Shown piece by piece: positions 12,013-36,720 of a stretch of 64,000 nt of DNA. Source of the stretch: Desulfuromonadales bacterium (lineage in GTDB: Bacteria > Desulfobacterota > Desulfuromonadia > Desulfuromonadales > SZUA-540). The position numbers and the translations under genes were made by a program. The stretch covers positions 32,001-96,000 of the forward strand of contig JAWSUS010000002.1 in the NCBI GenBank assembly GCA_033549025.1, given 5' to 3'. Below the pieces are notes generated by a model. It was not told the origin of the DNA and ran no database searches. It was given only the letters and a program-made list of their open reading frames with translations. Within the stretch, counting starts at the first letter, position 1. The number at the start of each line of letters is the position of its first letter.

Positions 12013-12576
12013 TTAGCCCTCCATCAGCAGAATGGCCTCGGCGACCTCCTTGAGGCTCTTGCGCTTGTCCATGGCGATCTTCTGCAACTTGCGGTAAGCC
12101 TCGGCCTCGCTCATCCCCTTGGCCATAAGTACGCCCTTGGCCTTGTCCACCTGTTTGCGCGTCTCCAAGGTTTCCTTGAGCTTATGCACCTCGTCCTTGA
12201 GGGTGGACACTTCCACAAAATGGTGAATGGCCAGATCGACGGCGGCATAGACCTGTTCAGCCCGCAGGGGTTTGAGGACATAATTCATGACCCCGGCCCG
12301 GCGGGCGCGCTCGATCGTCGCGACATCGGCGGTAGCCGTCAGCAGCACCACCGGGATCGACCGAATCTTGCCTATTCTTTCGGCAGCCGTGATGCCATCC
12401 ATAACGGGCATGGACACATCCATCACGATGAGGAGGGGATTTTTTACCCGGGCCAGGTCGAGGGCCTGACTGCCGTTTTCCGCCTCGACAATCTCATCAA
12501 AGCCGTAGTCGGCCAGAATTTCCGCCACCTGGCGACGCAGCATCGGTTCGTCATCAACGACCAGAGCACATTTCAT
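12013..12576 (-). CDS. gnfR: REC-ANTAR RNA-binding antiterminator (GnfR-like nitrogen-fixation regulator)
   Basis: Receiver domain (VVDDE, MDVSMPVMDG, LKP) plus ANTAR (RKQVDKAKGVLM...SEAEAYRKLQKIAMDKR); located in the nif region. Confidence 0.85.
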   Translation of the reverse strand: MKCALVVDDEPMLRRQVAEILADYGFDEIVEAENGSQALDLARVKNPLLIVMDVSMPVMDGITAAERIGKIRSIPVVLLTATADVATIERARRAGVMNYVLKPLRAEQVYAAVDLAIHHFVEVSTLKDEVHKLKETLETRKQVDKAKGVLMAKGMSEAEAYRKLQKIAMDKRKSLKEVAEAILLMEG

Positions 12577-20256: not shown

Positions 20257-21132
20257 TCAAACGGCCTGGGCGTGCAGGGCTTCCAGATCGATGTCCCGTC
20301 CCACCACCCCGGCGGCATCGGCGCGGCACTGTTTGCAGTGGCGAGCCTGGGAGAGGATCAGCTCGGCCTGGTTGCGGACCATCTCCATAACCGCTTCGGA
20401 AGGGGGCTCGATATCCTGGAAGAGCCCGATGGGGATCACGGGAATAATGTTCATCATAGTCGCCCCAAGCTCCCTCACCTTGACGGCCAGTTCCAGGGTT
20501 TCGTGGTCATTGACTCCCGGGATGTACACGTGGTTAATCTTGACCATCAGCCCGGCCTTCGCTGCCATCTCCACCCCTATGAGCTGCTGCCTGAGGAGGA
20601 TCTCCGCTGCTTCCTGGCCGCTGAGACGCTGACCGTCAAACCTGATCCATTCGGTGATCTTGGCGCCGGTTTCAGGGCTCAGGGCATTAATGGTGACGGT
20701 CAGACTGTGGATGTCGGCCTCAAGGAGCTGGTCCAGCATCTCGGGCAGGCGCAGACCGTTGGTTGACAGGCACAGGGTCATCTCGGGGAAGGCTTCCCGT
20801 ACCAGCGTAAACGTTTCAAAAGTCTTGGGATTGGCCAGCGGATCGCCGGGGCCGGCAATACCGACCACCTTGAGTTGAGCCCCTCCGGCTTTCTCCATGT
20901 GGGCCTTGACAAGACGTACCCTCTCGACGCCCTGGGCCGGAGTGAGCACCCTGCTGGTAACACCGGGGCGGCTTTCATTGGCGCAGTCGAACTTGCGCTC
21001 GCAGAATCCACACTTGATATTGCAGCCCGGAGCGACGGGGAGGTGAATACGGCCAGCCTTGCTGTGGTCACCGCCGAAGCAGGGGTGGTCGGACTGAACT
21101 TTGGCTTTCATCATCGGGCACTGCTTGGCCAT
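20257..21132 (-). CDS. nifB: Radical SAM FeMo-cofactor biosynthesis protein NifB (stand-alone, no NifX domain)
   Basis: HPC, RIHLPVAPGCNIKCGFC, ESRPG, AGPGDPL, STNG, CKQCRADA; start ATG 21132. Confidence 0.93.
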   Translation of the reverse strand: MAKQCPMMKAKVQSDHPCFGGDHSKAGRIHLPVAPGCNIKCGFCERKFDCANESRPGVTSRVLTPAQGVERVRLVKAHMEKAGGAQLKVVGIAGPGDPLANPKTFETFTLVREAFPEMTLCLSTNGLRLPEMLDQLLEADIHSLTVTINALSPETGAKITEWIRFDGQRLSGQEAAEILLRQQLIGVEMAAKAGLMVKINHVYIPGVNDHETLELAVKVRELGATMMNIIPVIPIGLFQDIEPPSEAVMEMVRNQAELILSQARHCKQCRADAAGVVGRDIDLEALHAQAV

Positions 21133-21157
21133 AACGGGTCTCCTTGGCTGGGGACGC

Positions 21158-21277
21158 AAAAAGAGCGCTCCCTGTTGTTGGTAAGCGCCCTTGCTGATTC
21201 CACAGCGTAATAAAACCCCGGGGTCGATGCCCCGAGGCTTCATTGCCGAGAGAGAAAAACCGGTACGTCCTTGTACC
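21158..21277 (-). promoter_or_regulatory. Three ANTAR hairpins and two terminators in the nifB-modABC leader
   Basis: GGTAC-AAGGAC-GTACC; GGC-AATGAA-GCC overlapping terminator 1 (21209-21238); AGC-AAGGGC-GCT overlapping terminator 2 (21158-21190). Confidence 0.85.
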
Positions 21278-21302
21278 TGTAAATTGATTTAATCCATAGA
21301 AT

Positions 21303-21318
21303 TGCGAATTGCATGCCA
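21303..21318 (-). promoter_or_regulatory. sigma54 promoter of nifB-modABC
   Basis: Minus strand TGGCATGCAATTCGCA. Confidence 0.8.
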
Positions 21319-21441
21319 AGCTGTGGGGGGCTAAAACAGGGGATGGAAAGTCCTATCCCGGGTTTTTCTGCCCATACCAGAGGCAACAACGACAAAAAGC
21401 GATCGCTTTTTGTGCAGCAGCACAGAGAGCTCCTTTCGAGC

Positions 21442-21813
21442 TCAGCTGGAACACCCGGATGAACGACAATGGCAATGGTTGCCGGCATGCAACGCGGAAC
21501 AGATGGCCTCCTCGATCGGTCCGGAGGCACTGACGTGACGGATACCGGCCTTTTCCAGTTCCTGGCGGGGATAATCGCCGATCTGCGCGGTGACCATCAG
21601 GGTACAGCCATCCAGCGCGGCCAGGATGCCGGCCATGCGGCTGTGACTGAAGACATGATCAGGGTCAGCGGAGCAGAACTTGACCACCGGCACCTCGGAG
21701 ATCTTGGCAGGTGAAGCACAGGATTCCCCGATTTCATAAATGTGAAATTTTTCGGCGTGACCGAAGTGTTGGTCGACTTCGGTTCCGCTTTTGGATGCTA
21801 CCGCAATACGCAT
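21442..21813 (-). CDS. NifB/NifX-family FeMo-co precursor-binding protein
   Basis: RIAVAS...VDQHFGHA..F.IY, IG..P...L; Cys/His-rich C-terminus HCHCRSSGC. Confidence 0.85.
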   Translation of the reverse strand: MRIAVASKSGTEVDQHFGHAEKFHIYEIGESCASPAKISEVPVVKFCSADPDHVFSHSRMAGILAALDGCTLMVTAQIGDYPRQELEKAGIRHVSASGPIEEAICSALHAGNHCHCRSSGCSS

Positions 21814-25913: not shown

Positions 25914-26894
<981 letters not shown>

Positions 26895-26981
26895 CTAAAA
26901 TGACAGAGCCCCATACGGAAAATCCGGATGGGGCGCCAGTGCCCGGCGGCTCCGTCATGGGACCGCCATAAGTTCTTGCAG

Positions 26982-27056
26982 AAAAAATAAAACGCCCGGT
27001 GGGGATATCCCGCCGGGCGCCGTTGCCTGCTTTACTCAAGACACCGCTTTGTGTCT
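26982..27056 (-). promoter_or_regulatory. ANTAR twin-hairpin plus intrinsic terminator in the nifH leader
   Basis: P1 AGACAC-AAAGCG-GTGTCT; P2 GGC-AACGGC-GCC overlapping the terminator CGCCCGG...CCGGGCG-TTTTATTTTTT. Confidence 0.88.
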
Positions 27057-27088
27057 CGAAAAAAAGTTTTTGGTTTTGTTTATCTTTC

Positions 27089-27104
27089 TGCAGAAGGCAT
27101 GCCA
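27089..27104 (-). promoter_or_regulatory. sigma54 promoter of nifHDK
   Basis: Minus strand TGGCATGCCTTCTGCA; a second candidate TGGACTATGGCTTGCA lies at 27160-27175. Confidence 0.8.
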
Positions 27105-27403
27105 GATGTGCATCGGAGTCCCTCACCTCGGGTGGCTGATCCCTTCTGAACCGCTTTATTGCAAGCCATAGTCCAACCTTCACTCCCCGCTCGCGACCGC
27201 CAATTGTCCTGCGCGGTGGCCCTCGTCGCAGGGGCTACGTGCTTAAAAAACAAGCTATCCTGCCCAAAAAAACACCCCCGCCCCCGCTGCCTTCTCCTAT
27301 AAGTCCCCGTTTTTACGTCAATGCCCGGCGGCATGAAGATTGAAATGGCTGAACCATCCGGAATCAATGACGCTCCGGCCCCTAAAAACAAGGAGGTTTT
27401 AAA

Positions 27404-28618
27404 ATGGACATGGCTGTCGAATCCCTGGTTCATAGCGGGGACATACTCTTTCTCATGCTCGGGGCGGTCATGGTCTTTGCCATGCACGCCGGATTTGCTT
27501 TTCTCGAAGTTGGCACCGTCCGGCGGAAAAGCCAGGTCAATGCCTTCGTTAAGATTCTTACCGACTGGTCGGTATCGACGGTGGTCTATTTTGCCGTCGG
27601 CTTTCCCATCGCCTATGGCATTCATTTCTTCCACCCGGCCGCGGATTTGCTTGCCGCGGATCAGGGCTACCAACTGGTACGATTCTTCTTTCTCCTCTGC
27701 TTCGCCGCCTGCATACCCGCCATCATTTCCGGCGGCATTGCCGAGCGGGCCAAGTTCTGGCCGCAGGTAGCGGCCGGAGCCGTTTTTGCCGCGGTGATCT
27801 ATCCCCTGTTCGAGTCGCTGATCTGGGGGCAGAACAGCTCTGGTCTTCAGGCTTTTTTCGAGCAGAATCTCGGAGCCCCTTTCCATGATTTTGCCGGCAG
27901 CGTGGTGGTTCATTCCATGGGAGGGTGGCTGGCCCTGCCCGCTATCATCATCCTTGGTGCCCGCAAGGGACGCTTTGTCAAAGGACAGAGCCGGGCCATT
28001 CCTATCAGCAACATTCCCTTTCTCGCTCTGGGGAGCTGGATTTTGGCCGTCGGCTGGTTCGGCTTCAACGTCATGAGCGCCCAATCCCTTACCGGCATAT
28101 CGGGGCTGGTCGCCCTGAACTCGCTGATGGCCATGGTTGGCGGCGTCCTCTTTGCCCTGGTTGCCGGCCGCAACGACCCCGGCTTCGCCCACAACGGCGC
28201 TCTGGCCGGCCTGATTGCCATCTGTGCCGGGTCGGACATTCTGCATCCGATCGCCGCCTTTGTGGTCGGTGGCATCGGCGCCCTGATCTTTGTTTACGGT
28301 TTCCAGTGGGAACAGGAAAAACTGCAGATCGATGACGTGCTCGGGGTCTGGCCGCTGCACGGCATCATCGGCACCTGGGGCGGCGTTGCCGCCGGCATTT
28401 TCGGCTACCCCTTGCTGGGCGGCCTGGGCGGCGTCAGTTTCCTGTCCCAGGTGGCGGGCAGTGCGCTGGCCATTCTCTGGGCTGTCTCCATGGGCACGTT
28501 GGTCTACGGGGCCATCAAGAAGATTTCCGGCATCCGCCTTCAGGAGGAGGAGGAGTTCCGTGGCGCCGACCTTTCGATTCACCGCATCGATGCCTATCCG
28601 GAAGAACACGTTAAATAA
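27404..28618 (+). CDS. amtB: Ammonium transporter (Amt family)
   Basis: GFAFLEVGTVR, IISGGIAER, DFAGSVVVH, WFGFN, NGALAGL, DDVLGVWPLHG; SD AAGGAGG. Confidence 0.93.
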   Translation: MDMAVESLVHSGDILFLMLGAVMVFAMHAGFAFLEVGTVRRKSQVNAFVKILTDWSVSTVVYFAVGFPIAYGIHFFHPAADLLAADQGYQLVRFFFLLCFAACIPAIISGGIAERAKFWPQVAAGAVFAAVIYPLFESLIWGQNSSGLQAFFEQNLGAPFHDFAGSVVVHSMGGWLALPAIIILGARKGRFVKGQSRAIPISNIPFLALGSWILAVGWFGFNVMSAQSLTGISGLVALNSLMAMVGGVLFALVAGRNDPGFAHNGALAGLIAICAGSDILHPIAAFVVGGIGALIFVYGFQWEQEKLQIDDVLGVWPLHGIIGTWGGVAAGIFGYPLLGGLGGVSFLSQVAGSALAILWAVSMGTLVYGAIKKISGIRLQEEEEFRGADLSIHRIDAYPEEHVK

Positions 28619-28654
28619 CGAGTTCGGGGGCAGGAGGGCTCGTCAGCTCTTCCC

Positions 28655-29086
28655 TCAGGAAATGGAATCCACCTTCAGGGCAAAGGTCAGATCGAGACCG
28701 GCCAGAGGGTGGTTGCCATCCAGCGTGATGCGGCCTTCCTGCACCTGGATCACGCGCATGGGGAGCAGGTCCCCGTTTTTCAGGGTGAGTTCCACCTGTT
28801 GCCCAGGCCTGGGTTGGGATCCGGCGGGGAGCTGATTCTCGCGCAAGGTCAGCAGATTCTCCTTGCGATGAGGACCGTAAGCCTTCTCGGCGGGGATGAG
28901 CAGGTTCTTCGCCTCGCCTGCGGCCATCCCTGCCACCGCCTCTTCCAGCGCGGCAAAGACCTCGCCGGCACCCAGCACGAAGGACAGGGGTTCACGGTCC
29001 GTGGTGCTGTCAAAAATGCGGCCGTTGTCGAGGGTGCCGATGTAGTGAATGGCCACCCGGTCGCCGCTGTGGGCTCTTTTCATCAT
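28655..29086 (-). CDS. FKBP-type peptidyl-prolyl isomerase (SlyD/FkpB-like)
   Basis: [39 protein letters not shown]. Confidence 0.92.
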
Positions 29087-29517
29087 GGCTCCTTTCGGCT
29101 GATGATCCAGAATCGATCATCGAAAAAACGTACGAGGAGAGGTCTGACCTCCTTCCACGACAACCCGCCACCTCCGCAACCAGGGCGCGGCACGATGATA
29201 CGGGTCCACCCCCTGCCATCGGCCAAGTCCCTGAGCTGCTGGCAGGAGCGCTCAATGATCTGGAGGTCGGGAACCTCGTAAGGGCTGTTCTCGACCGGAA
29301 AGCTCACCAACCCCTCCATCGGTTCGAAAACCCGGTTTCCGTTGTTACCAATAAGCAAACCCAGAGTGGCCGCAAGGCTCGGGAAGCGATCCCGGGCTTC
29401 ACGGGCGCATCCCCTCGGCATGGCGCACTCCCCTTTGGGGGTAACGAGCCCGCCGGTGGTGATGGCGATCACGCCGTTGCCGAAATAATCCCAGAGTTCC
29501 CCTTCGATCTCCTGCAT
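29083..29517 (-). CDS. Macrodomain (ADP-ribose-binding, DarG/TARG1-like fold) protein
   Basis: [45 protein letters not shown] (a P.xGCG.GGL.W glycine loop typical of this macrodomain class). Confidence 0.7.
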
Positions 29518-29522
29518 GCCGC

Positions 29523-29816
29523 CTACCCCTTGAGAATGTGACGCATGGTCTCGTAGAGGGCATCGTAGACCGCCTCGCGAGTGGAGATAAAGGCGGGGAT
29601 GTCGTTGTTGAGAATATCCTCAAGATGCTCGAGAACCAGCCCGTCATCGGACTGCAGGGCATCCATCACCGCCGTGAACATGGGGAGTACTTCGTACAGA
29701 TCATAGCGGTCAAAGGGCCGAGGATCCGGTTTGCCGTTGAACTTGGGTTGCTCCCGGGTTGCCTTTTTACGGGGATAGCGATACTTCAGGTCCGAGGGTT
29801 TGATCATAACGCCCAT
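29523..29816 (-). CDS. Hypothetical protein
   Basis: 97-aa ORF with SD AAGGAGG, packed between co-oriented genes. Confidence 0.7.
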
Positions 29817-29834
29817 GGGAAATCCTCCTTGTGG

Positions 29835-30077
29835 TCAGGATCCGCAACCGGAGCAACCGGATTTCTTGCAATGCGGGACAATTTTTGGGGTGAGCCGGTC
29901 AGGATCACCAAGGCAGGCAGCGATGCTTTCGCGCGTCACCTGCCAGACGCCGTCGATTTCCTGGCCGGAAAGCAGGTTCTGTTTGAGCATCATCAGGATA
30001 CGCACCGGGGTGGTGTTCAGTTCCCGGGCGGCTTGAGCCACGGTCAGCCGGGAAGACGGACAGGATGTTTCGGTCAT
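29835..30077 (-). CDS. Small HTH (excisionase/MerR-like) protein with Cys-rich tail
   Basis: LTVAQAARELNTT...G..IDGVWQVTRES; tail HCKKSGCSGCGS; SD AAGGAG. Confidence 0.7.
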   Translation of the reverse strand: MTETSCPSSRLTVAQAARELNTTPVRILMMLKQNLLSGQEIDGVWQVTRESIAACLGDPDRLTPKIVPHCKKSGCSGCGS

Positions 30078-30100
30078 GGGTTATCTCCTTGTCAGGTGCT

Positions 30101-30174
30101 AAAAAAAAGCCTGCACGAAACCACAAAGGTCTCTGCAGGCGCCATTGCCTGTATCTCCGTTCGCCTTGACCGGA
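30101..30174 (-). promoter_or_regulatory. ANTAR hairpin overlapping an intrinsic terminator downstream of draG
   Basis: GGC-AATGGC-GCC overlaps GCCTGCA...TGCAGGC-T8; imperfect upstream hairpin TCCG-GTCAAGGCGAA-CGGA. Confidence 0.78.
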
Positions 30175-30205
30175 CTATTTTTCGAAGGAACCAGGGGGGG
30201 GCGGA

Positions 30206-31120
30206 CTAAAATCCCCGCTGGGCCAGAGGGGAGAGCAGCGTGAGTTTTTTGGCCTTCTCTTCCACCTCCATACGGGTGGCACGATCGAGCTGTTTAAGCC
30301 ACCTGGCGGGAATCGAGGTGGGCCCGTAGAAGGCTCCGGCGATCATGCCCGCGATAGCTCCCGTGGTGTCGGCATCCCCTCCCTGGTTGACCACGCCGAT
30401 CAGGCAGTCCTCAAAGGTGGCGGTGGTGAAGAGATAGTGGAACACCGTCTGCATCGTCTCCACCACATAGCCGCTGGCGCGTCCTCGGTAGGTACTGAAA
30501 CGGAAGGTGGGGAACTCGCTGCAGAGCTGCTGGGTTTCTCCGTGCATCTCAAAGCGGTCGGCCCCGAGCAAGGCATTCTGTACCATCCGGCCGGCAGCCA
30601 GGCACGCCGCGTCAGACAGCGGGTGGTGGTGAGTCAGATGGGCCTGTTCCAGGGTGCAGCGCCGAAACAGATCCTCGTCACCCAGGGTGTAGAGCGCGAC
30701 CGGAGCCATTCTCATCACCGCCCCGTTTCCGGCGTCCCAATCATTCTGCGGTCGCTGGATGGTGCCGTTGAGCATATAATCCCGGATCCCCTTACGCACC
30801 GTGGCGCCGATGTCCACCGGCTTGCCACGCATCCAGGCAACGAATTGGTCGGCAATTCCCGTCAGGTCCCAGGTCCCCGCTTCTTCGATGGCCCGGGCGA
30901 TACACAGGGACATCTCCGTATCGTCCGTCACCTGCCCCGCCTTGAGGCCGAGCCAGCCACCGCCAATAATTTTACGGTGCACCCCGTATCGGTGGGTGAT
31001 CTCCGCCGGGGTCATGAACTCGGTGGTAGCGCCCAGGGCGTCACCAATGGCCACCCCCAGAAAAGCCCCTCTGGCCCTCTCCAGGATCGCCTCCATGGCA
31101 CGGCTGCTCTGTTCCGTCAT
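30206..31120 (-). CDS. draG: ADP-ribosyl-[dinitrogenase reductase] glycohydrolase
   Basis: GDALGATTEFM, GGGWLGL, VTDDTEMS, PVDIGAT, AGNGAVMR, THHHPLSD, GGDADTTGA. Confidence 0.95.
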   Translation of the reverse strand: MTEQSSRAMEAILERARGAFLGVAIGDALGATTEFMTPAEITHRYGVHRKIIGGGWLGLKAGQVTDDTEMSLCIARAIEEAGTWDLTGIADQFVAWMRGKPVDIGATVRKGIRDYMLNGTIQRPQNDWDAGNGAVMRMAPVALYTLGDEDLFRRCTLEQAHLTHHHPLSDAACLAAGRMVQNALLGADRFEMHGETQQLCSEFPTFRFSTYRGRASGYVVETMQTVFHYLFTTATFEDCLIGVVNQGGDADTTGAIAGMIAGAFYGPTSIPARWLKQLDRATRMEVEEKAKKLTLLSPLAQRGF

Positions 31121-31132
31121 GCGCTCCCCTGT

Positions 31133-31933
31133 TCAGCCGCCGGTAAGAATCTTGATCTCAAAGTCCCCGCCGATGACCAGGACTTCTTCTTCGCCCTTAA
31201 GCAGCGCCCTGGGAAGCAGATCACACCGGAAAAAGATTTTGGGCGTCGGCACCTCGACCTGCATGACCCGTGTACCAAACTCCCAGGCCCGCTCAAAATC
31301 GGTGGTGAAAGAGGTCAGGTTGTTCAACCGGATCAAATGCCGGTTCTTGCCCAGGGGCTTGAGAATGCGCTGCTCCGAAAAATCCTGTACGCCGCGAAAG
31401 AGGGTGCAGTGCCCCAGCCCGCCTTTTTCCCTCTCCAGCTCATATTGACTGAACTCATAGAGCAGGTCGAGCTGAAGCAACAGAGCGCTGGTGCGCGCCG
31501 AGCCCTTCATGCGCTCGGTCAGGTAACGGAAATAGGCCTCGCCATGGATATCCTCGATCGGCCCCTTGTGATACGTGGGAGGCAGACCGATGCGACTTTC
31601 CACCCAGCCTTTGAGAACGGCCCCTTCGATGGAGTTGGCGTCGAACATCCATCCCCGCAGAAAACGCAGATAGCTGTTTTTCAGGCTCTTACGTCCTCTT
31701 TCCGTCGCCTGTTGCTCCCATTGATGCAGCTGAAAGCTGACATCCATGTAGTCATGAAACTGCAGGCCGCGCTCTTCCCGGGTTTCCAGACAAGCCAACT
31801 GGTCAAAGAGCAGCCGGTGCGCCGCGCGCACTCCCTGAATCTCCAGCCGCTGCGGATGGCTGTTAAAAGCTGGGGAGGCGATCACCCAAGGAGGCAAATT
31901 GCACCGATTGATGGCTGCGGACGAAAAAGCCAC
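31133..31933 (-). CDS. draT: NAD(+)-dinitrogenase reductase ADP-ribosyltransferase
   Basis: NRCNLPPW, SYLRFLRGWMFD, EGAVLKGWVESR.GL, QLDLLYE, RLNNL.SF, LKGEEE.LVIGG; GTG start at 31933 (SD GGGAG). Confidence 0.93.
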   Translation of the reverse strand: MAFSSAAINRCNLPPWVIASPAFNSHPQRLEIQGVRAAHRLLFDQLACLETREERGLQFHDYMDVSFQLHQWEQQATERGRKSLKNSYLRFLRGWMFDANSIEGAVLKGWVESRIGLPPTYHKGPIEDIHGEAYFRYLTERMKGSARTSALLLQLDLLYEFSQYELEREKGGLGHCTLFRGVQDFSEQRILKPLGKNRHLIRLNNLTSFTTDFERAWEFGTRVMQVEVPTPKIFFRCDLLPRALLKGEEEVLVIGGDFEIKILTGG

Positions 31934-32132
31934 GGAACGCTCCCATGCGATAAAAAAACAGCCAGCAGCTGCTGATCCTTTAATCACTGTGACCCTGAAA
32001 AACCTTGGACATCGCCTTTTAAGGGCGTTTTTGGACCACGGAGGGAAACATCTTCAAGAGCTGTGCCTTTTAAAAGGGAATATCGATATTAAATCTCCTC
32101 ATGCCCTTGGAACATAACTTTTGTTCGCCTTC

Positions 32133-32188
32133 AAAAACAAGAAAAGCGGCTGACCGGATTCCTCAGGGAGAAGAACTCGGCCAGCCGC
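32133..32188 (-). terminator. Intrinsic terminator closing the ext operon
   Basis: GCGGCTGGCCG...CGGTCAGCCGC followed by TTTTCTTGTTTTT. Confidence 0.7.
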
Positions 32189-32227
32189 GCATGGCAAGTG
32201 CCAATATCAGGAGGCTTCAGCCAGCGT

Positions 32228-32320
32228 TTAACGTTTGCTGACCTTCGTTTTTGCCCTCTTCCCAGCAAAAGCCACGCTGGAGGACAACATAGCGATGATG
32301 GTTAGTATGAGCCGTTTTCT
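32228..32320 (-). pseudogene. Degenerate remnant of a small exported protein gene (extJ position)
   Basis: SD AAGGAG, then RKRLILTIIAMLSSSVAFA-GKRAKTKVSKR-stop: a signal-peptide-like sequence with no start codon and an early stop, directly after extI. Confidence 0.5.
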
Positions 32321-32358
32321 TGCTGGTGTTTCTCCTTTTGTGCCGGAGTTACCAGAGG

Positions 32359-33543
32359 TTAAAAAATGAGCTGCAGCTGTGCGGTCAGGGTGTTGATATC
32401 TTCGGTCTTCAGGTCGTTGACACCGAAGGTGCCTTCCTTGTCAAAGTCAACGACAGAATATTCCACCGTCAGCTTAAGACTCTGGCCACGGAAATAGTAG
32501 TTGACCCCGCCCGCGTAGGCGGTGATTTCCTGGTCGTAGATGTTATTCAGGCTGGCGAAGGACCACTGCTCATAGCGTCCGAAAAATTGCAGGGGAGTGT
32601 TGGGCAGCATGTAGCCGGCCTTGGTGTAACCACCGTTCTTCTGGCCATTGATGCCGGTGAGGCCGGCGGCGGTGTTGGCCTGATAGGCGTCGTCGAGGTC
32701 GTAATCGACATAGGCGGCGGACAGGGTGAAGGTGCCGACCTCTTCAATGGGGTACTCGAAGAAGCCGTCCACGGTCCAGGCGCTGTAATCGACGGATCCG
32801 CTGCCGGGAGCTTCGTACTCGACGTCAGACTCGAACTGGTAGGCTGCGCCCAGGGTAAGCACCCTCTTCTCGCCCAGGTAGGTGCCTTTGTAGCCGTAGC
32901 CGGTCTCTTTGTCGAGCAGGCTTACGTGACCTCGGGCGCTGTAGCGCAGGTTCGATTTGGGGGTGGAGTCGTTGTCGTTGCGGCCGTTCATGGCGTCAAG
33001 GCGGTACTGGAACATGCCGTCGGCCAGATTGCCCCACAGGGCCACCCCTTTGTCGCGGGTGCTGACGTAGGGAGCGCGGATGAAGTTGGAACGGTCGAGA
33101 GTCAGCGGCATTTCGCAGGCTTCGAGGTTTTCCCGGGTCAGGCTGTACTTGAATTTACCGACCCAGACGTTGACCTGCTCGTTGAGCTTGAAGCGCATGA
33201 CGGCATCGAGAATCTGAAAATCGGAATTTTCGCCATCGGTCACAGCCAGAGTGCCGATGTTGTTGTCCTCATTGAATTCGGTCTGTACATACAGCCCGAA
33301 GTTGGAACCGTAAGCGCCCATAAAGGCGAGGCGATTGCGGCGGAAGTTGAATTCGGTGGCGGCTTCGTCGTTGTCCTCGCCGGCGCCGGTGTCACGATGA
33401 GACAATTGGAACTGCCCTTTGTATTCAAACTTTAGCAATCCCTTGTCTTCGGGACCAAACTGCCAGGTCGGTCCGGCCAGGGCACTGGTAGCCAACAGCA
33501 TCCCGGCCAGGGCGCCCACGACGCCTGTTTTAATCCATTTCAT
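32359..33543 (-). CDS. extI: Outer-membrane porin, ExtI-like (OprP/OprO-related)
   Basis: Signal peptide; FGPEDKG..YKGQFQ, FRRNRLA, TRENLEACE.PLTLDRS, C-terminal QLQLIF; follows extH. Confidence 0.8.
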   Translation of the reverse strand: MKWIKTGVVGALAGMLLATSALAGPTWQFGPEDKGLLKFEYKGQFQLSHRDTGAGEDNDEAATEFNFRRNRLAFMGAYGSNFGLYVQTEFNEDNNIGTLAVTDGENSDFQILDAVMRFKLNEQVNVWVGKFKYSLTRENLEACEMPLTLDRSNFIRAPYVSTRDKGVALWGNLADGMFQYRLDAMNGRNDNDSTPKSNLRYSARGHVSLLDKETGYGYKGTYLGEKRVLTLGAAYQFESDVEYEAPGSGSVDYSAWTVDGFFEYPIEEVGTFTLSAAYVDYDLDDAYQANTAAGLTGINGQKNGGYTKAGYMLPNTPLQFFGRYEQWSFASLNNIYDQEITAYAGGVNYYFRGQSLKLTVEYSVVDFDKEGTFGVNDLKTEDINTLTAQLQLIF

Positions 33544-33610
33544 AGGTCACTCCTTATTTAGGGTCGCGGTCACCGCATTCCGGTGACCGCGTGTCTGTTA
33601 TGTTGGATGA

Positions 33611-35599
33611 TCAGCAACCACCGCCGGTCGGGACGAAGGGGGTCGGTGCACTACCACCGCCGCCACCAGTCGAACCACGATAGGCTTCATCCTCCTTGCG
33701 GATTTCATTCCCATCCCCGTTGTAATCCGGGTAAGTTTCCACCGTAGGCCAGTTCACGCCTGGGATATAGGTCTTCTTCTGGAGGTAGCTGTCGGAGTCA
33801 CTGCCGTCCGTATCTGTTCCGTTGTCGTTCAGGATCGATGTCGGTCGGAAAATGACACTCTCCGAGCGGCTTACGGTATCCCAGGTCGGGTTGCCTGAAA
33901 GGGCGCCGCCGAGTTTGATGGAAGTGCCCACATCATTCCCGTTAGCGGCATCGACGAACCATCCGGAGTTCTCGTCCCACTGGAAATAACTGTTTTTGTC
34001 CGCAAAAATGACCGCGGAGGGGATTCCCCCTGGGTAGGAGGGGAAGGTCGTGTAGGCGTCGTTCTTGATATAGGTGTCATCGGCGGGCTCATAGGCCGTC
34101 ATGACCGCCCATTCGTTCCAGGACCCATCATAGGTACGTACATCTTCAAAGCCGCAGACCTCCTGCAGGGCAAAAGCGTAGACGGATGCCAGGGCGCCTG
34201 AGTTGCAGTAGACGACAATCGGCTTGGTCCCATCAATTCCCGCCGCTGCGAAGGCATTGATCAGGGTTTCTTTGTCGGCGTATTTTGTGGATCCTGCAGT
34301 GCCTCCCGGGCCGATCGCTTCAGTAACCACGGGTACAGTGATGTTCCACTGAGGGCCGCCGTTTTTGACTAGTTTGGCCCCTTTTATCTTCCCTTCAAAG
34401 GCTGCGGGCTTGGCGCCCAGGGGAATGACCACCATTCCTTTGGTCGGGTCCGTATCATCCTTCCACTGGAAACGAATCCATGGGGACCCCGCCGCAGGAT
34501 CAAAGGGAAGGGGGTTTTCCATGCTGAAAGAAGGAATCCGTTGCACAGTCAGATTCGGATCATTGAAAAGCATCGCACTCAGGGTCAACTCCCGCATCGA
34601 AGAATCGGTGAACAGCTTTGTCACATCGCTGTAGGCATAACCCGAAACCTCGAAAATATCCGGAGCGCCGTTCCCGTTCGCATCGGTCAAATAAAAGGGG
34701 GTGGGAGGCTGTCTGGCATCGAGTACCACAACTTTTGCCGGATCGTCATCGGGAAGGGAGGTGCGGCCGCTGTCCACCATGTCAATCAATTCGCCGATAC
34801 TGATGCGCACGTCAAAGAAGCGCTTGGGCAATTCCATGACGCTGAAATCTGAAGGGGTCACATTGGCCAAGGTGACGACTCCCTTTTCCAGGGGAGCCTC
34901 GGTAGGATGGTTGGCTTTCATGTACATGGCGTAAGCACGATTGCCACCATCCAGAATGCGGATATTCTTTTTGGCAAAACCCCAGTAGCGCAGCGTCCAC
35001 CACAATCTTGAAGAACAGAATCCGGGATAGTCCTGGCGGGCCGTCGTCATGACAAGGACATCGTCTTTGGTGATGCCATAGCGCTGCAGCATCTGATCGA
35101 TGAGGGAACCTGTCCCGACTTCGTGGTCAGCGAGAAGAGGACCGTCGTTGCGGGGTGTTACCTCATAGCCTTCATGGGAGACGCTGGGCAGAGCGCCAGG
35201 TATGTGCCCCAGGACTCCGGCTGCATCGAGTTTGGCGATCATTATGTACTGAGGGGCATCGACGCCGTACTGGGCCGCCATGTTAGTCCTTATCTTGTCG
35301 GCATCCCCGGCCATCCAGCTTTCGACATCAGAATAGGGGAAAACACCCGAGGGGTTGGGTAAGCAATCTAATATCACCACCCGATTTCCTTCTTCCGTTT
35401 TATAACCATTATCAATCCAGCTTTTCAAAGTCTCTGGTTCAATAAGGGCATTTGCTGTCGCATCATCCTTATAATATTCGGCATCCGGATCATCATAACT
35501 GTCCGTGCTGCAACCCGTCAGGCCCACAGCGGCGGCCAGCAGCAGAGCCATAAGCCATGCCACCATTTTTCCGCTCTCTTTTACGCCTCCATACTTCAT
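33611..35599 (-). CDS. extH: Multi-rhodanese lipoprotein, ExtH-like
   Basis: Lipobox LTGC, GHIPGA, RLWWTLRYWGF, ILDGG, YCNSG, YDGSWNEW, C-terminal GGGC. Confidence 0.78.
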   Translation of the reverse strand: MKYGGVKESGKMVAWLMALLLAAAVGLTGCSTDSYDDPDAEYYKDDATANALIEPETLKSWIDNGYKTEEGNRVVILDCLPNPSGVFPYSDVESWMAGDADKIRTNMAAQYGVDAPQYIMIAKLDAAGVLGHIPGALPSVSHEGYEVTPRNDGPLLADHEVGTGSLIDQMLQRYGITKDDVLVMTTARQDYPGFCSSRLWWTLRYWGFAKKNIRILDGGNRAYAMYMKANHPTEAPLEKGVVTLANVTPSDFSVMELPKRFFDVRISIGELIDMVDSGRTSLPDDDPAKVVVLDARQPPTPFYLTDANGNGAPDIFEVSGYAYSDVTKLFTDSSMRELTLSAMLFNDPNLTVQRIPSFSMENPLPFDPAAGSPWIRFQWKDDTDPTKGMVVIPLGAKPAAFEGKIKGAKLVKNGGPQWNITVPVVTEAIGPGGTAGSTKYADKETLINAFAAAGIDGTKPIVVYCNSGALASVYAFALQEVCGFEDVRTYDGSWNEWAVMTAYEPADDTYIKNDAYTTFPSYPGGIPSAVIFADKNSYFQWDENSGWFVDAANGNDVGTSIKLGGALSGNPTWDTVSRSESVIFRPTSILNDNGTDTDGSDSDSYLQKKTYIPGVNWPTVETYPDYNGDGNEIRKEDEAYRGSTGGGGGSAPTPFVPTGGGC

Positions 35600-35771
35600 T
35601 TCTGCCTCCTCGATTGGTTGGGATGATTCCCCTTGTCCGAAAAGTTCGACGGCCAGGCTGATCGCAAGCGTCTACGCTAAATAACGGAGCAACCCACTAA
35701 CTTCGCCCATAAATCAATTGAACTTTAAGGGGTTTTTGGCCTAGTATGAAGCGAGTAATTTTCATGACATT

Positions 35772-35786
35772 ATGCGTCTGACGCAT
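35772..35786. promoter_or_regulatory. Putative LysR box (T-N11-A palindrome)
   Basis: ATGCGTCTGACGCAT between the divergent extH and lysR genes. Confidence 0.55.
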
Positions 35787-35802
35787 GACCCGAGGCACCC
35801 TG

Positions 35803-36720
35803 ATGGAATCGACCTACCTGAAGACCCTGCTTGAAGTCGTTCGCACCGGAAGTCTGACCAAGGCTGCCGACACCCTGTGCGTAACCCAGTCCGCCATATC
35901 CCGGCGCATCAAGTTCATGGAAGAACAATACGGCTACGAACTTATCGACCGCTCCGGCCCCGTGTTGACGCCGACCGCCGTGGGTGAGCTGGTGGTGGAT
36001 AAAGCACGCAAAATTCTGGAGATCGAGCAGGAACTCTTTTCCGGCCTGGGCCTGCTTAAAAGCAAAAAAGCCCTCGCCTTTGTCTGCACGCCCACCTTTG
36101 GAATCATTTATCTTCCTGAGATCATGAGAGATTTCATCCTCTCCAATCCGGATACGGGAGATCTGAAATTTGGTCTGGAAATGCCAGAGACTATTGTGAA
36201 GGGATTAAAGGAAGGCGCCTATGAGATGGCTGTAGTGGAGCATTGCCAGTGCTTCGACCTGGCCGACTTTGAAACTATTCCCCTGCCCGGGGACGAGATG
36301 GTCTTCGCCGTCTCCTCCAAGTTGAACCTGGCAGGACCGCAGGCATCTCTCGACGATCTCTTTGAGCACACCCTCTACTCCCGCAGCGAGGGCTGCTGTT
36401 CGCGGACGCTGCTGGAAAACAATCTGAACAACATGGGTATGGATATCGGCAGGTTTAATCGAACGGTGATTTACGATGACGTGCATATCATTGTCGATGC
36501 CCTGATTCGGGGCGAAGGGGTGGGTTTCATCTCCACCGACCTGATCCGTTCCCATGTCAAAGAAGGAAGACTTCAGGAATTACGGGTGGAGGGTTTCATC
36601 CATCAGCGCAATCGTACCTTCATCCACAGCGGCTGCCTGCCTGAATGCAATGCCGGCAGAGCGTTTGTGCGTGCCATAATGGCCCATTTCAACCTGGAAC
36701 TGCCCTGCCCTCCTCTTTGA
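35803..36720 (+). CDS. LysR family transcriptional regulator
   Basis: GSLTKAADTLCVTQSAISRRIKFME HTH; Cys-containing sensor motifs EHCQC and GCCSR. Confidence 0.92.
   Translation: MESTYLKTLLEVVRTGSLTKAADTLCVTQSAISRRIKFMEEQYGYELIDRSGPVLTPTAVGELVVDKARKILEIEQELFSGLGLLKSKKALAFVCTPTFGIIYLPEIMRDFILSNPDTGDLKFGLEMPETIVKGLKEGAYEMAVVEHCQCFDLADFETIPLPGDEMVFAVSSKLNLAGPQASLDDLFEHTLYSRSEGCCSRTLLENNLNNMGMDIGRFNRTVIYDDVHIIVDALIRGEGVGFISTDLIRSHVKEGRLQELRVEGFIHQRNRTFIHSGCLPECNAGRAFVRAIMAHFNLELPCPPL

Follow-up and report, generated by a model that had tools for sequence, protein, structure and literature searches.

A macrodomain that may read ADP-ribose beside the nitrogenase switch-off genes draT and draG in Desulfuromonadia

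The window analysed here is a 64,000-nt stretch of the genome of a Desulfuromonadales bacterium. It carries the nitrogenase switch-off genes draT and draG, followed on the same minus strand by four small genes, one of which encodes a macrodomain of 144 amino acids (aa). Modelling confirms this protein as a member of the DarG/TARG1 (ALC1-like) class, and in the class Desulfuromonadia its gene is nearly confined to genomes with DraT. It is quite probable that the macrodomain serves the DraT/DraG circuit in one form or another, be it as reader, second eraser or sensor of free ADP-ribose. The more specific reading preferred here, a likely non-catalytic ADP-ribose reader working with DraG, is given slightly less than an even chance. 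DraT and DraG are the textbook bacterial pair for reversible ADP-ribosylation, and to our knowledge they have been described without a reader.

In the proposed mechanism, a sigma54 promoter would drive draT-draG at this locus, and during nitrogen fixation antitermination by GnfR would extend transcription into the four genes downstream. The macrodomain would bind the ADP-ribose carried by NifH in its switched-off state, or that freed by DraG, tuning the recovery of nitrogenase. Without cleaving anything itself, it would help DraG to find or release its substrate. The features of the locus are the following:

32189..32204, minus strand: predicted sigma54-like -24/-12 promoter (GG-N10-GC) upstream of draT; consensus per PMC2995071, Table S2
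31133..31933, minus strand: draT, NifH ADP-ribosyltransferase (Pfam DRAT, 358.6 bits, cut-off 25)
30206..31120, minus strand: draG, ADP-ribosyl-[dinitrogenase reductase] hydrolase (TIGR02662, 433.7 bits, cut-off 337)
30101..30174, minus strand: putative internal GnfR (ANTAR)-type attenuator (sequence and fold energies)
29835..30077, minus strand: HTH-Cys, an 80-aa protein with a helix-turn-helix of HTH_17 type (weak match, E 0.08) and a Cys-rich tail
29523..29816, minus strand: 97-aa conserved helical protein, no family match
29083..29517, minus strand: 144-aa macrodomain, DarG/TARG1 class by its model, Glu-type (FPVE)
28655..29086, minus strand: FKBP-type peptidyl-prolyl isomerase, FkpB/SlyD-like (FKBP_C, 69.6 bits)

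Open reading frame (ORF) calling and family scans recovered all six genes, draT to FKBP, at the positions and in the order given by the initial annotation, with intergenic gaps of 12, 128, 18, 5 and -4 nt.

Fold and active site of the macrodomain

The 144-aa protein has no Pfam match, and the NCBIfam DarG model gives 29.7 bits against a cut-off of 250, over model positions 73-137 of 338. Its predicted structure, built from a 103-row alignment, has a mean predicted local distance difference test score (pLDDT) of 93.7. The best structural match is DarG (5m3i; Z 18.6, root-mean-square deviation 2.0, 135 residues aligned), TARG1 follows with Z 17.1, and Foldseek ranks 1-11 are all DarG or TARG1, ahead of the other macro classes. 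The macro fold that had been suggested from the letters alone is hence confirmed by the model. Beyond the fold, the protein shares with DarG and TARG1 the minimal domain size, the GxGxGGL diphosphate loop and the FP motif. It differs from them in the replacement of Lys by Glu and of the DarG Trp by Pro, in an MGxG motif that is usually MPRG, and in being a single domain set among draTG and nif genes.

The TTGG and FPVE motifs are present as first described. Profile alignment places FPVE on the FPTK of DarG, with Glu76 on its Lys and Pro79 on its Trp. Glu occupies position 76 in 120/120 near hits and in 56 of the 57 named loci for which the motif was read (among the matches listed), and Lys is found there in 131 of 145 distant representatives. 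Among the 120 near hits, the position of the thymine-stacking Trp83 of DarG is Pro in 111 and Trp in 4, and the N-terminal Asn position, Gly22 in the window protein, is Gly in 67 and Asn in 30. Position 80 is aromatic in 112 and Glu81 is kept in 92, giving a patch FPVExxP[YFW]E. At the TARG1 dyad (Lys84 and the acidic residue 125), the window protein has Glu and Gly.

The split between Glu-type and Lys-type proteins is supported at 100/99 in a tree of 47 rows, from which five divergent representatives (Glu or other residues) had been removed; in a quick tree, four divergent rows of this kind grouped with the Lys side. The DraG row L050 was left out of alignment A3. The active site had been called degenerate: the lysine of DarG and TARG1 is indeed lost, but judged from the sequences the site is not decaying, and Glu76 marks a distinct subfamily.

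Two identities were rejected: a degenerate pseudo-domain, ruled out by the invariant Glu, and a DarG antitoxin, ruled out by the change of Lys80 to Glu and of Trp83 mostly to Pro, and by a length of 144 aa instead of a full-length two-domain protein. The neighbours of the gene are draG, the 97-aa gene, HTH-Cys, FKBP and nif genes, in scans that included no family search directed at DarT.

What is known of related enzymes favours a binder over a hydrolase. In the accessible parts of the respective papers, DarG K80A is inactive (PMC9967889), and in SCO6735 of Streptomyces coelicolor, assayed on a DNA substrate, Q85E abolishes and N27S nearly abolishes activity (PMC9411070). The window protein has Glu and Gly at these places. 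SCO6735 belongs to the same class and likewise has no catalytic Lys, but its Gln85 is held by Asn27, whereas the window protein combines Glu76 with Gly22 and the Asn varies among its relatives. ADP-ribose binding is probably retained, since the G-[DE]-L start and the PRPGCGxGGL loop are conserved in the Glu-type macrodomains. The domain is presumably non-hydrolysing, and its acidic and aromatic FPVExxP[YFW]E patch would suit ADP-ribosyl-arginine.

The main rival to a reader is a second eraser, in which Glu76 would itself be catalytic: it would hydrolyse Arg-ADP-ribose on NifH without metal, or remove the products of off-target DraT activity or small derivatives of ADP-ribose. This would fit the invariance of Glu76, and it explains the co-occurrence and the fusions described below equally well. 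The ALC1 class is mechanistically diverse, SCO6735 being a hydrolase although it lacks the Lys (PMC7050489, in part). Arg-specific macrodomain hydrolases are known too: enzymes of the MavL class, a separate macrodomain class, cleave Arg-ADP-ribose using a nearby acid (PMC11668277, in part). MavL and Larg1 are thus a precedent for action on this bond, but the closest folds to the window protein are DarG and TARG1, and no MavL-class entry is named among the matches listed in the fold searches. Q85E, the change that puts Glu at this place, kills SCO6735, the Asn that would position residue 76 is mostly lost, and the DraG of the fusion proteins is intact, which would make a second Arg eraser redundant. 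A second eraser is considered unlikely.

Co-occurrence and fusion with DraT/DraG

Among 41 relatives, the 19 with the macrodomain gene all carry nifH, and none of the 12 relatives lacking nifH has it. Of 161 genomes of the class, 79 have the macrodomain and 132 have DraT; 78 have both, 54 only DraT, 28 neither, and a single one the macrodomain alone. Put differently, the Glu-type macrodomain occurs in 78/132 genomes with DraT vs. 1/29 without, and the sole exception (G156) has nifH and draG. This profile, together with fusions to DraG, bears out the suggested linkage to draTG in relatives. Among 301 genomes of the phylum, nine matches were found, eight of Glu-type, all in genomes with DraT and NifD, and one weak match of FPTK-type. 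By category, the Glu-type is present in 8/16 genomes with DraT and NifD, 0/44 with NifD only and 0/5 with DraT only.

Among 37 longer macrodomain hits, 24 are DraG-macrodomain fusions of 436-445 aa, with the macrodomain at the C-terminus of an intact DraG. The fusion was verified in the DNA of G027, where it is one open frame, and of loci L092 and L094; another fusion protein, P0127, carries the name Desulfuromonas carbonis in its source. The DraG part of the G027 protein is 67% identical to the window DraG with its motifs intact, as are the TDDT and DADTT motifs of the window DraG itself. In 19 of 34 genomes of the window's own order, no more than 4 kb separate the macrodomain gene from draT. 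In 13 of the 79 genomes the two genes share a contig but are more than 50 kb apart, and the unlinked copies are still confined to genomes with DraT and DraG.

Several observations weigh against a reader working with DraG. The macrodomain is absent from 54 of the 132 DraT genomes (41%), so it is optional and dispensable. In the class, the distribution of nif nearly coincides with that of draTG, and the genomes are kin, hence not independent; the positives outside the class come down to one genus (G380, G403) and one Anaeromyxobacter genome. The fusions form one clade (support 100/97) and therefore represent one event. Of the 45 genomes beyond the window's order, only one has the macrodomain gene and draT 4 kb or less apart. 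The macrodomain gene differs from that of G001 by 16 synonymous and 13 non-synonymous changes (draT 32 and 4, draG 28 and 11), and is under weaker constraint than either. Among the 59 named loci in the matches listed, on which the neighbourhood counts are based, 22 have no nif or dra gene in the flanks covered, and the commonest neighbour is the 97-aa gene (29 loci) rather than draG (20 loci). By analogy with SCO6735, active without Lys, and with the nearby acid of the MavL class, the invariant Glu76 could also be catalytic on another substrate.

Some of these facts would suit a passenger, that is, a phage-derived macrodomain that settled in an ancestral nif island, comes and goes with that island and plays no part in the switch. 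The nearest sequence relatives of the window protein (32-42% identity among the matches listed) are phage-type macrodomains (FP[VT]K), named ADP-ribose-binding protein or Appr-1-p processing. They share the PRPGCG motif, and their TTNG is counted as a further likeness, but they keep Lys and Trp, and the Glu-type branches apart from them, in cellular diazotrophs. Phage records with Lys-type relatives number 51 (<60% identity), and fusions of the Lys-type to NADAR, YspA or DUF4326 domains also occur. The missing copies and the solitary loci, and fusion or adjacency to a glutamine amidotransferase, point the same way. On the other side, unlinked copies are found only with DraT and DraG, and the DraT-negative members of these lineages (G136, G058) have none. 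The out-of-class carriers (G380, G403, G466) all have draT, draG and nifH, the Anaeromyxobacter carrier with a split draG match, while G231, of the G380 family and with NifD only, has no copy. That an ADP-ribose fold should be fused to an ADP-ribosyl hydrolase would also be a rather specific coincidence. A mere passenger is considered improbable.

Two observations concern DraT itself. Five genomes of family f77, genus g164 (G296, G354, G404, G426 and G448; 97-100% complete) have a full-length DraT and no NifH or NifD match, in a search that left 72,000 bases outside its coverage in two of them; this suggests another substrate or a leftover gene. G108:C1 and G110:C1 have two draT copies per genome, one of them 6.5-7 kb from a pair of 97-aa and macrodomain genes.

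The attenuator and the accessory genes

The initial annotation placed an ANTAR hairpin and terminator after draG and assumed that the macrodomain behind it may be expressed only when GnfR is active. Three further features of the window matter here:

27016..27029, minus strand: exact GnfR site in the nifH leader, used as positive control; a sigma54-like promoter at 27090-27105 precedes it
25914..26792, minus strand: nifH, the DraT target, with Arg104 in a CAGRGV motif
12013..12576, minus strand: gnfR-like gene, receiver and ANTAR domains, the sole PF03861 (ANTAR) match in the genome

According to the available part of Ueki and Lovley (2010, PMC2995071), GnfR of Geobacter sulfurreducens binds CAGGCAANGGCGCC and relieves termination. 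This sequence is found exactly at 30138-30151, inside the 128-nt gap between draG and HTH-Cys; the only other match in the window with at most one mismatch is that of the nifH leader. Shuffled windows gave a mean of 0.30 matches, and two were reached in 4 of 100 shuffles; genome-wide, exact matches number three. The terminator (30101-30140) ends in T8, and its 5' arm is the 3' arm of the GnfR site. The computed folds are mutually exclusive, with -29.1 kcal/mol for the terminator and -25.2 for the fold retaining the site hairpin, a difference of 3.9. ANTAR targets follow a model of two hairpins with A1/G4 hexaloops. The second hairpin is perfect; the upstream one (30156-30174) is imperfect, having a C-A closing mismatch, although its loop is spaced as in G027, at 15 nt.

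A strict scan for site plus terminator, which replaced a looser motif scan that gave many coding-region hits, returned eight hits in the genome: the draG/HTH-Cys element, the nifH, nifV and glnK-amt leaders, and four others that look like chance. The same scan of 3.6 Mb of shuffled DNA gave none. The generic terminator scan did not pick up the draG/HTH-Cys element, and Rfam gave nothing at E up to 1 across 26700-32400. Four metatranscriptome runs (two studies, contigs only) gave short pieces of low depth that cover intergenic DNA as well. The exact site, the overlapping terminator, the ANTAR protein in the genome and the specificity of the strict scan make the gate real at the level of sequence, with a presumed gating function. 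No sigma54-like element was found on this strand between those of draT (32204) and nifH (27105).

The element shares with the GnfK/GnfR system of G. sulfurreducens the exact site overlapping an intrinsic terminator, and in the window genome elements of this type also precede nifH, nifV and glnK-amt. The published sites, in the accessible portion of that paper, lie in promoter leaders of nifH, nifEN, nifX, glnK, amtB and related operons (PMC2995071), whereas the window site lies behind draG, ~2 kb inside the draTG unit. The long nifH leaders of G001 and G027 contain an additional GnfR-like site that has a separate hairpin (L021:3462-3556; L031), which suggests tandem attenuators; the window nifH leader has a variant hairpin at this place.

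The gate is not general. A looser GnfR-site scan over 73 macrodomain loci (one a duplicate) found a site within 3.5 kb upstream of the gene in 15, of which 13 are credible by eye and two lie in coding sequence. Each credible site is found either in the draG/HTH-Cys gap or in the leader of a nifV operon or radical-SAM operon whose last gene is the macrodomain. In the fusion loci L031 and L094, and in six head-to-head draG loci, the site is downstream of the macrodomain gene, which speaks against gating as a general feature; G004 and G030 lack a macrodomain gene but have draTG and the gate together with HTH-Cys and the 97-aa gene. The gate is hence tied less to the macrodomain than to nitrogen-fixation operons and to the pair of HTH-Cys and 97-aa genes, and its control of the macrodomain would be, by these comparisons, local and not conserved. 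Of the assumption about GnfR, the attenuator at this locus stands; the general form is not supported.

The gene set is variable as well. Flanks of the 59 loci contain a nif or dra gene in 37, HTH-Cys in 23 and FKBP in 15. The draG gene is found near the macrodomain gene in tandem and in head-to-head layouts, and in G020 the macrodomain gene lies between nifK and nifX. As a fixed unit, the four-gene module of the initial annotation is ruled out by this variation in order and membership. At the head-to-head loci (L076, L080, L082, L084, L105 and L122), ~40-65 bases separate the matched stretches, which would allow little promoter room, and draT is elsewhere. In Geobacterales, the macrodomain gene can stand next to the gene of a class I glutamine amidotransferase or be fused with it (P0146, P0147; L070, L073, L095, L117), and it often precedes an operon of circularly permuted ATP-grasp, alpha-E and transglutaminase genes.

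Among the partners, the 97-aa protein stands out. It is present in 124/161 class genomes vs. 79/161 for the macrodomain, and in 121/132 genomes with DraT vs. 3/29 others, a tighter tracking; on these distributions, it may be a more central unknown than the macrodomain. Its gene is within 1 kb of the macrodomain gene in 39 of 79 genomes, and in one protein (P0060) the two are fused. The model has a pLDDT of 94.1, with a best structural Z of 5.3, no Foldseek match at E 0.001 and only unnamed clusters in the Atlas; a new fold is thereby not shown. The HTH-Cys protein keeps its four tail Cys in 37/45 homologue hits, and the tail is predicted to be a metal or iron-sulfur site. Both would be further draTG/nif-linked accessories. 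FKBP is the loosest member, with four further full-length paralogues in the genome.

These partners also bear on a third rival, a sink or sensor of free ADP-ribose, which would signal through the 97-aa and HTH-Cys proteins without contacting NifH. Loss of the Lys would then avoid glycation: Lys84 of TARG1 forms an Amadori adduct with ADP-ribose (PMC7050489, in part). The closeness of the 97-aa gene and its single fusion fit, and in G007 and G032 the HTH-Cys, 97-aa and macrodomain genes sit together away from draTG. However, the recurrent fusion partner is DraG, with 24 proteins vs. one, and many genomes have the 97-aa gene but no macrodomain. The probability of such a sensor is put as low as that of the passenger.

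Relation to the known switch-off system and genomic surroundings

With the DraT/DraG/PII/AmtB system of Rhodospirillum rubrum and Azospirillum brasilense, the window shares the draT-draG pair and the target arginine of NifH, Arg104, which we take to be the equivalent of Arg101 in R. rubrum. As in that system, the genome has amt genes, one nearby and a glnK-amt pair elsewhere. Two reviews, in their accessible portions, describe no macrodomain, DraG-macrodomain fusion, 97-aa or HTH-Cys accessory (PMC7050489, PMC8120803). Full-text searches, which most subscription journals escape, found no literature linking a macrodomain to DraG or nitrogenase, nor do the available parts of PMC8120803, PMC9503650, PMC12903952 and PMC10746287. 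Databases already label these macrodomain proteins as ADP-ribose-binding.

It is tentatively suggested, as a somewhat unlikely scenario, that Desulfuromonadia domesticated a DarG-like hydrolase of phage type, which the Lys-to-Glu change turned into a dedicated reader of Arg-ADP-ribosylated NifH, forming with the 97-aa protein of unmatched fold and the HTH-Cys protein a so far undescribed accessory layer in a writer-eraser-reader system. Bacteria of Geobacter and Desulfuromonas type are prominent diazotrophs of soils and sediments, according to portions of PMC10746287 and PMC5635172. If true, a DraG-coupled macrodomain would be an added component of the post-translational control of nitrogenase and a new chemistry in the ALC1 class. 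It might yield a small affinity reagent for arginine-ADP-ribose, and the natural fusion offers a direct test of cooperation with DraG.

The locus is embedded in a nif cluster (nifH, amt, nifB, nifV, mod and fdxN by family scans), and the named relatives are Desulfuromonadales and Geobacterales. The draT open frame reaches 31987; the GTG at 31933 comes with a ribosome site and agrees with the starts in relatives. The genes directly upstream of draT (32359-36720) encode an ExtI porin, a rhodanese protein resembling ExtH and a LysR regulator associated with multiheme cytochromes. Two separate ORFs match NifB (20257-21813, minus strand), one the radical SAM part and the other the C-terminal part, and a GnfR-like site is located between them, near 21193.

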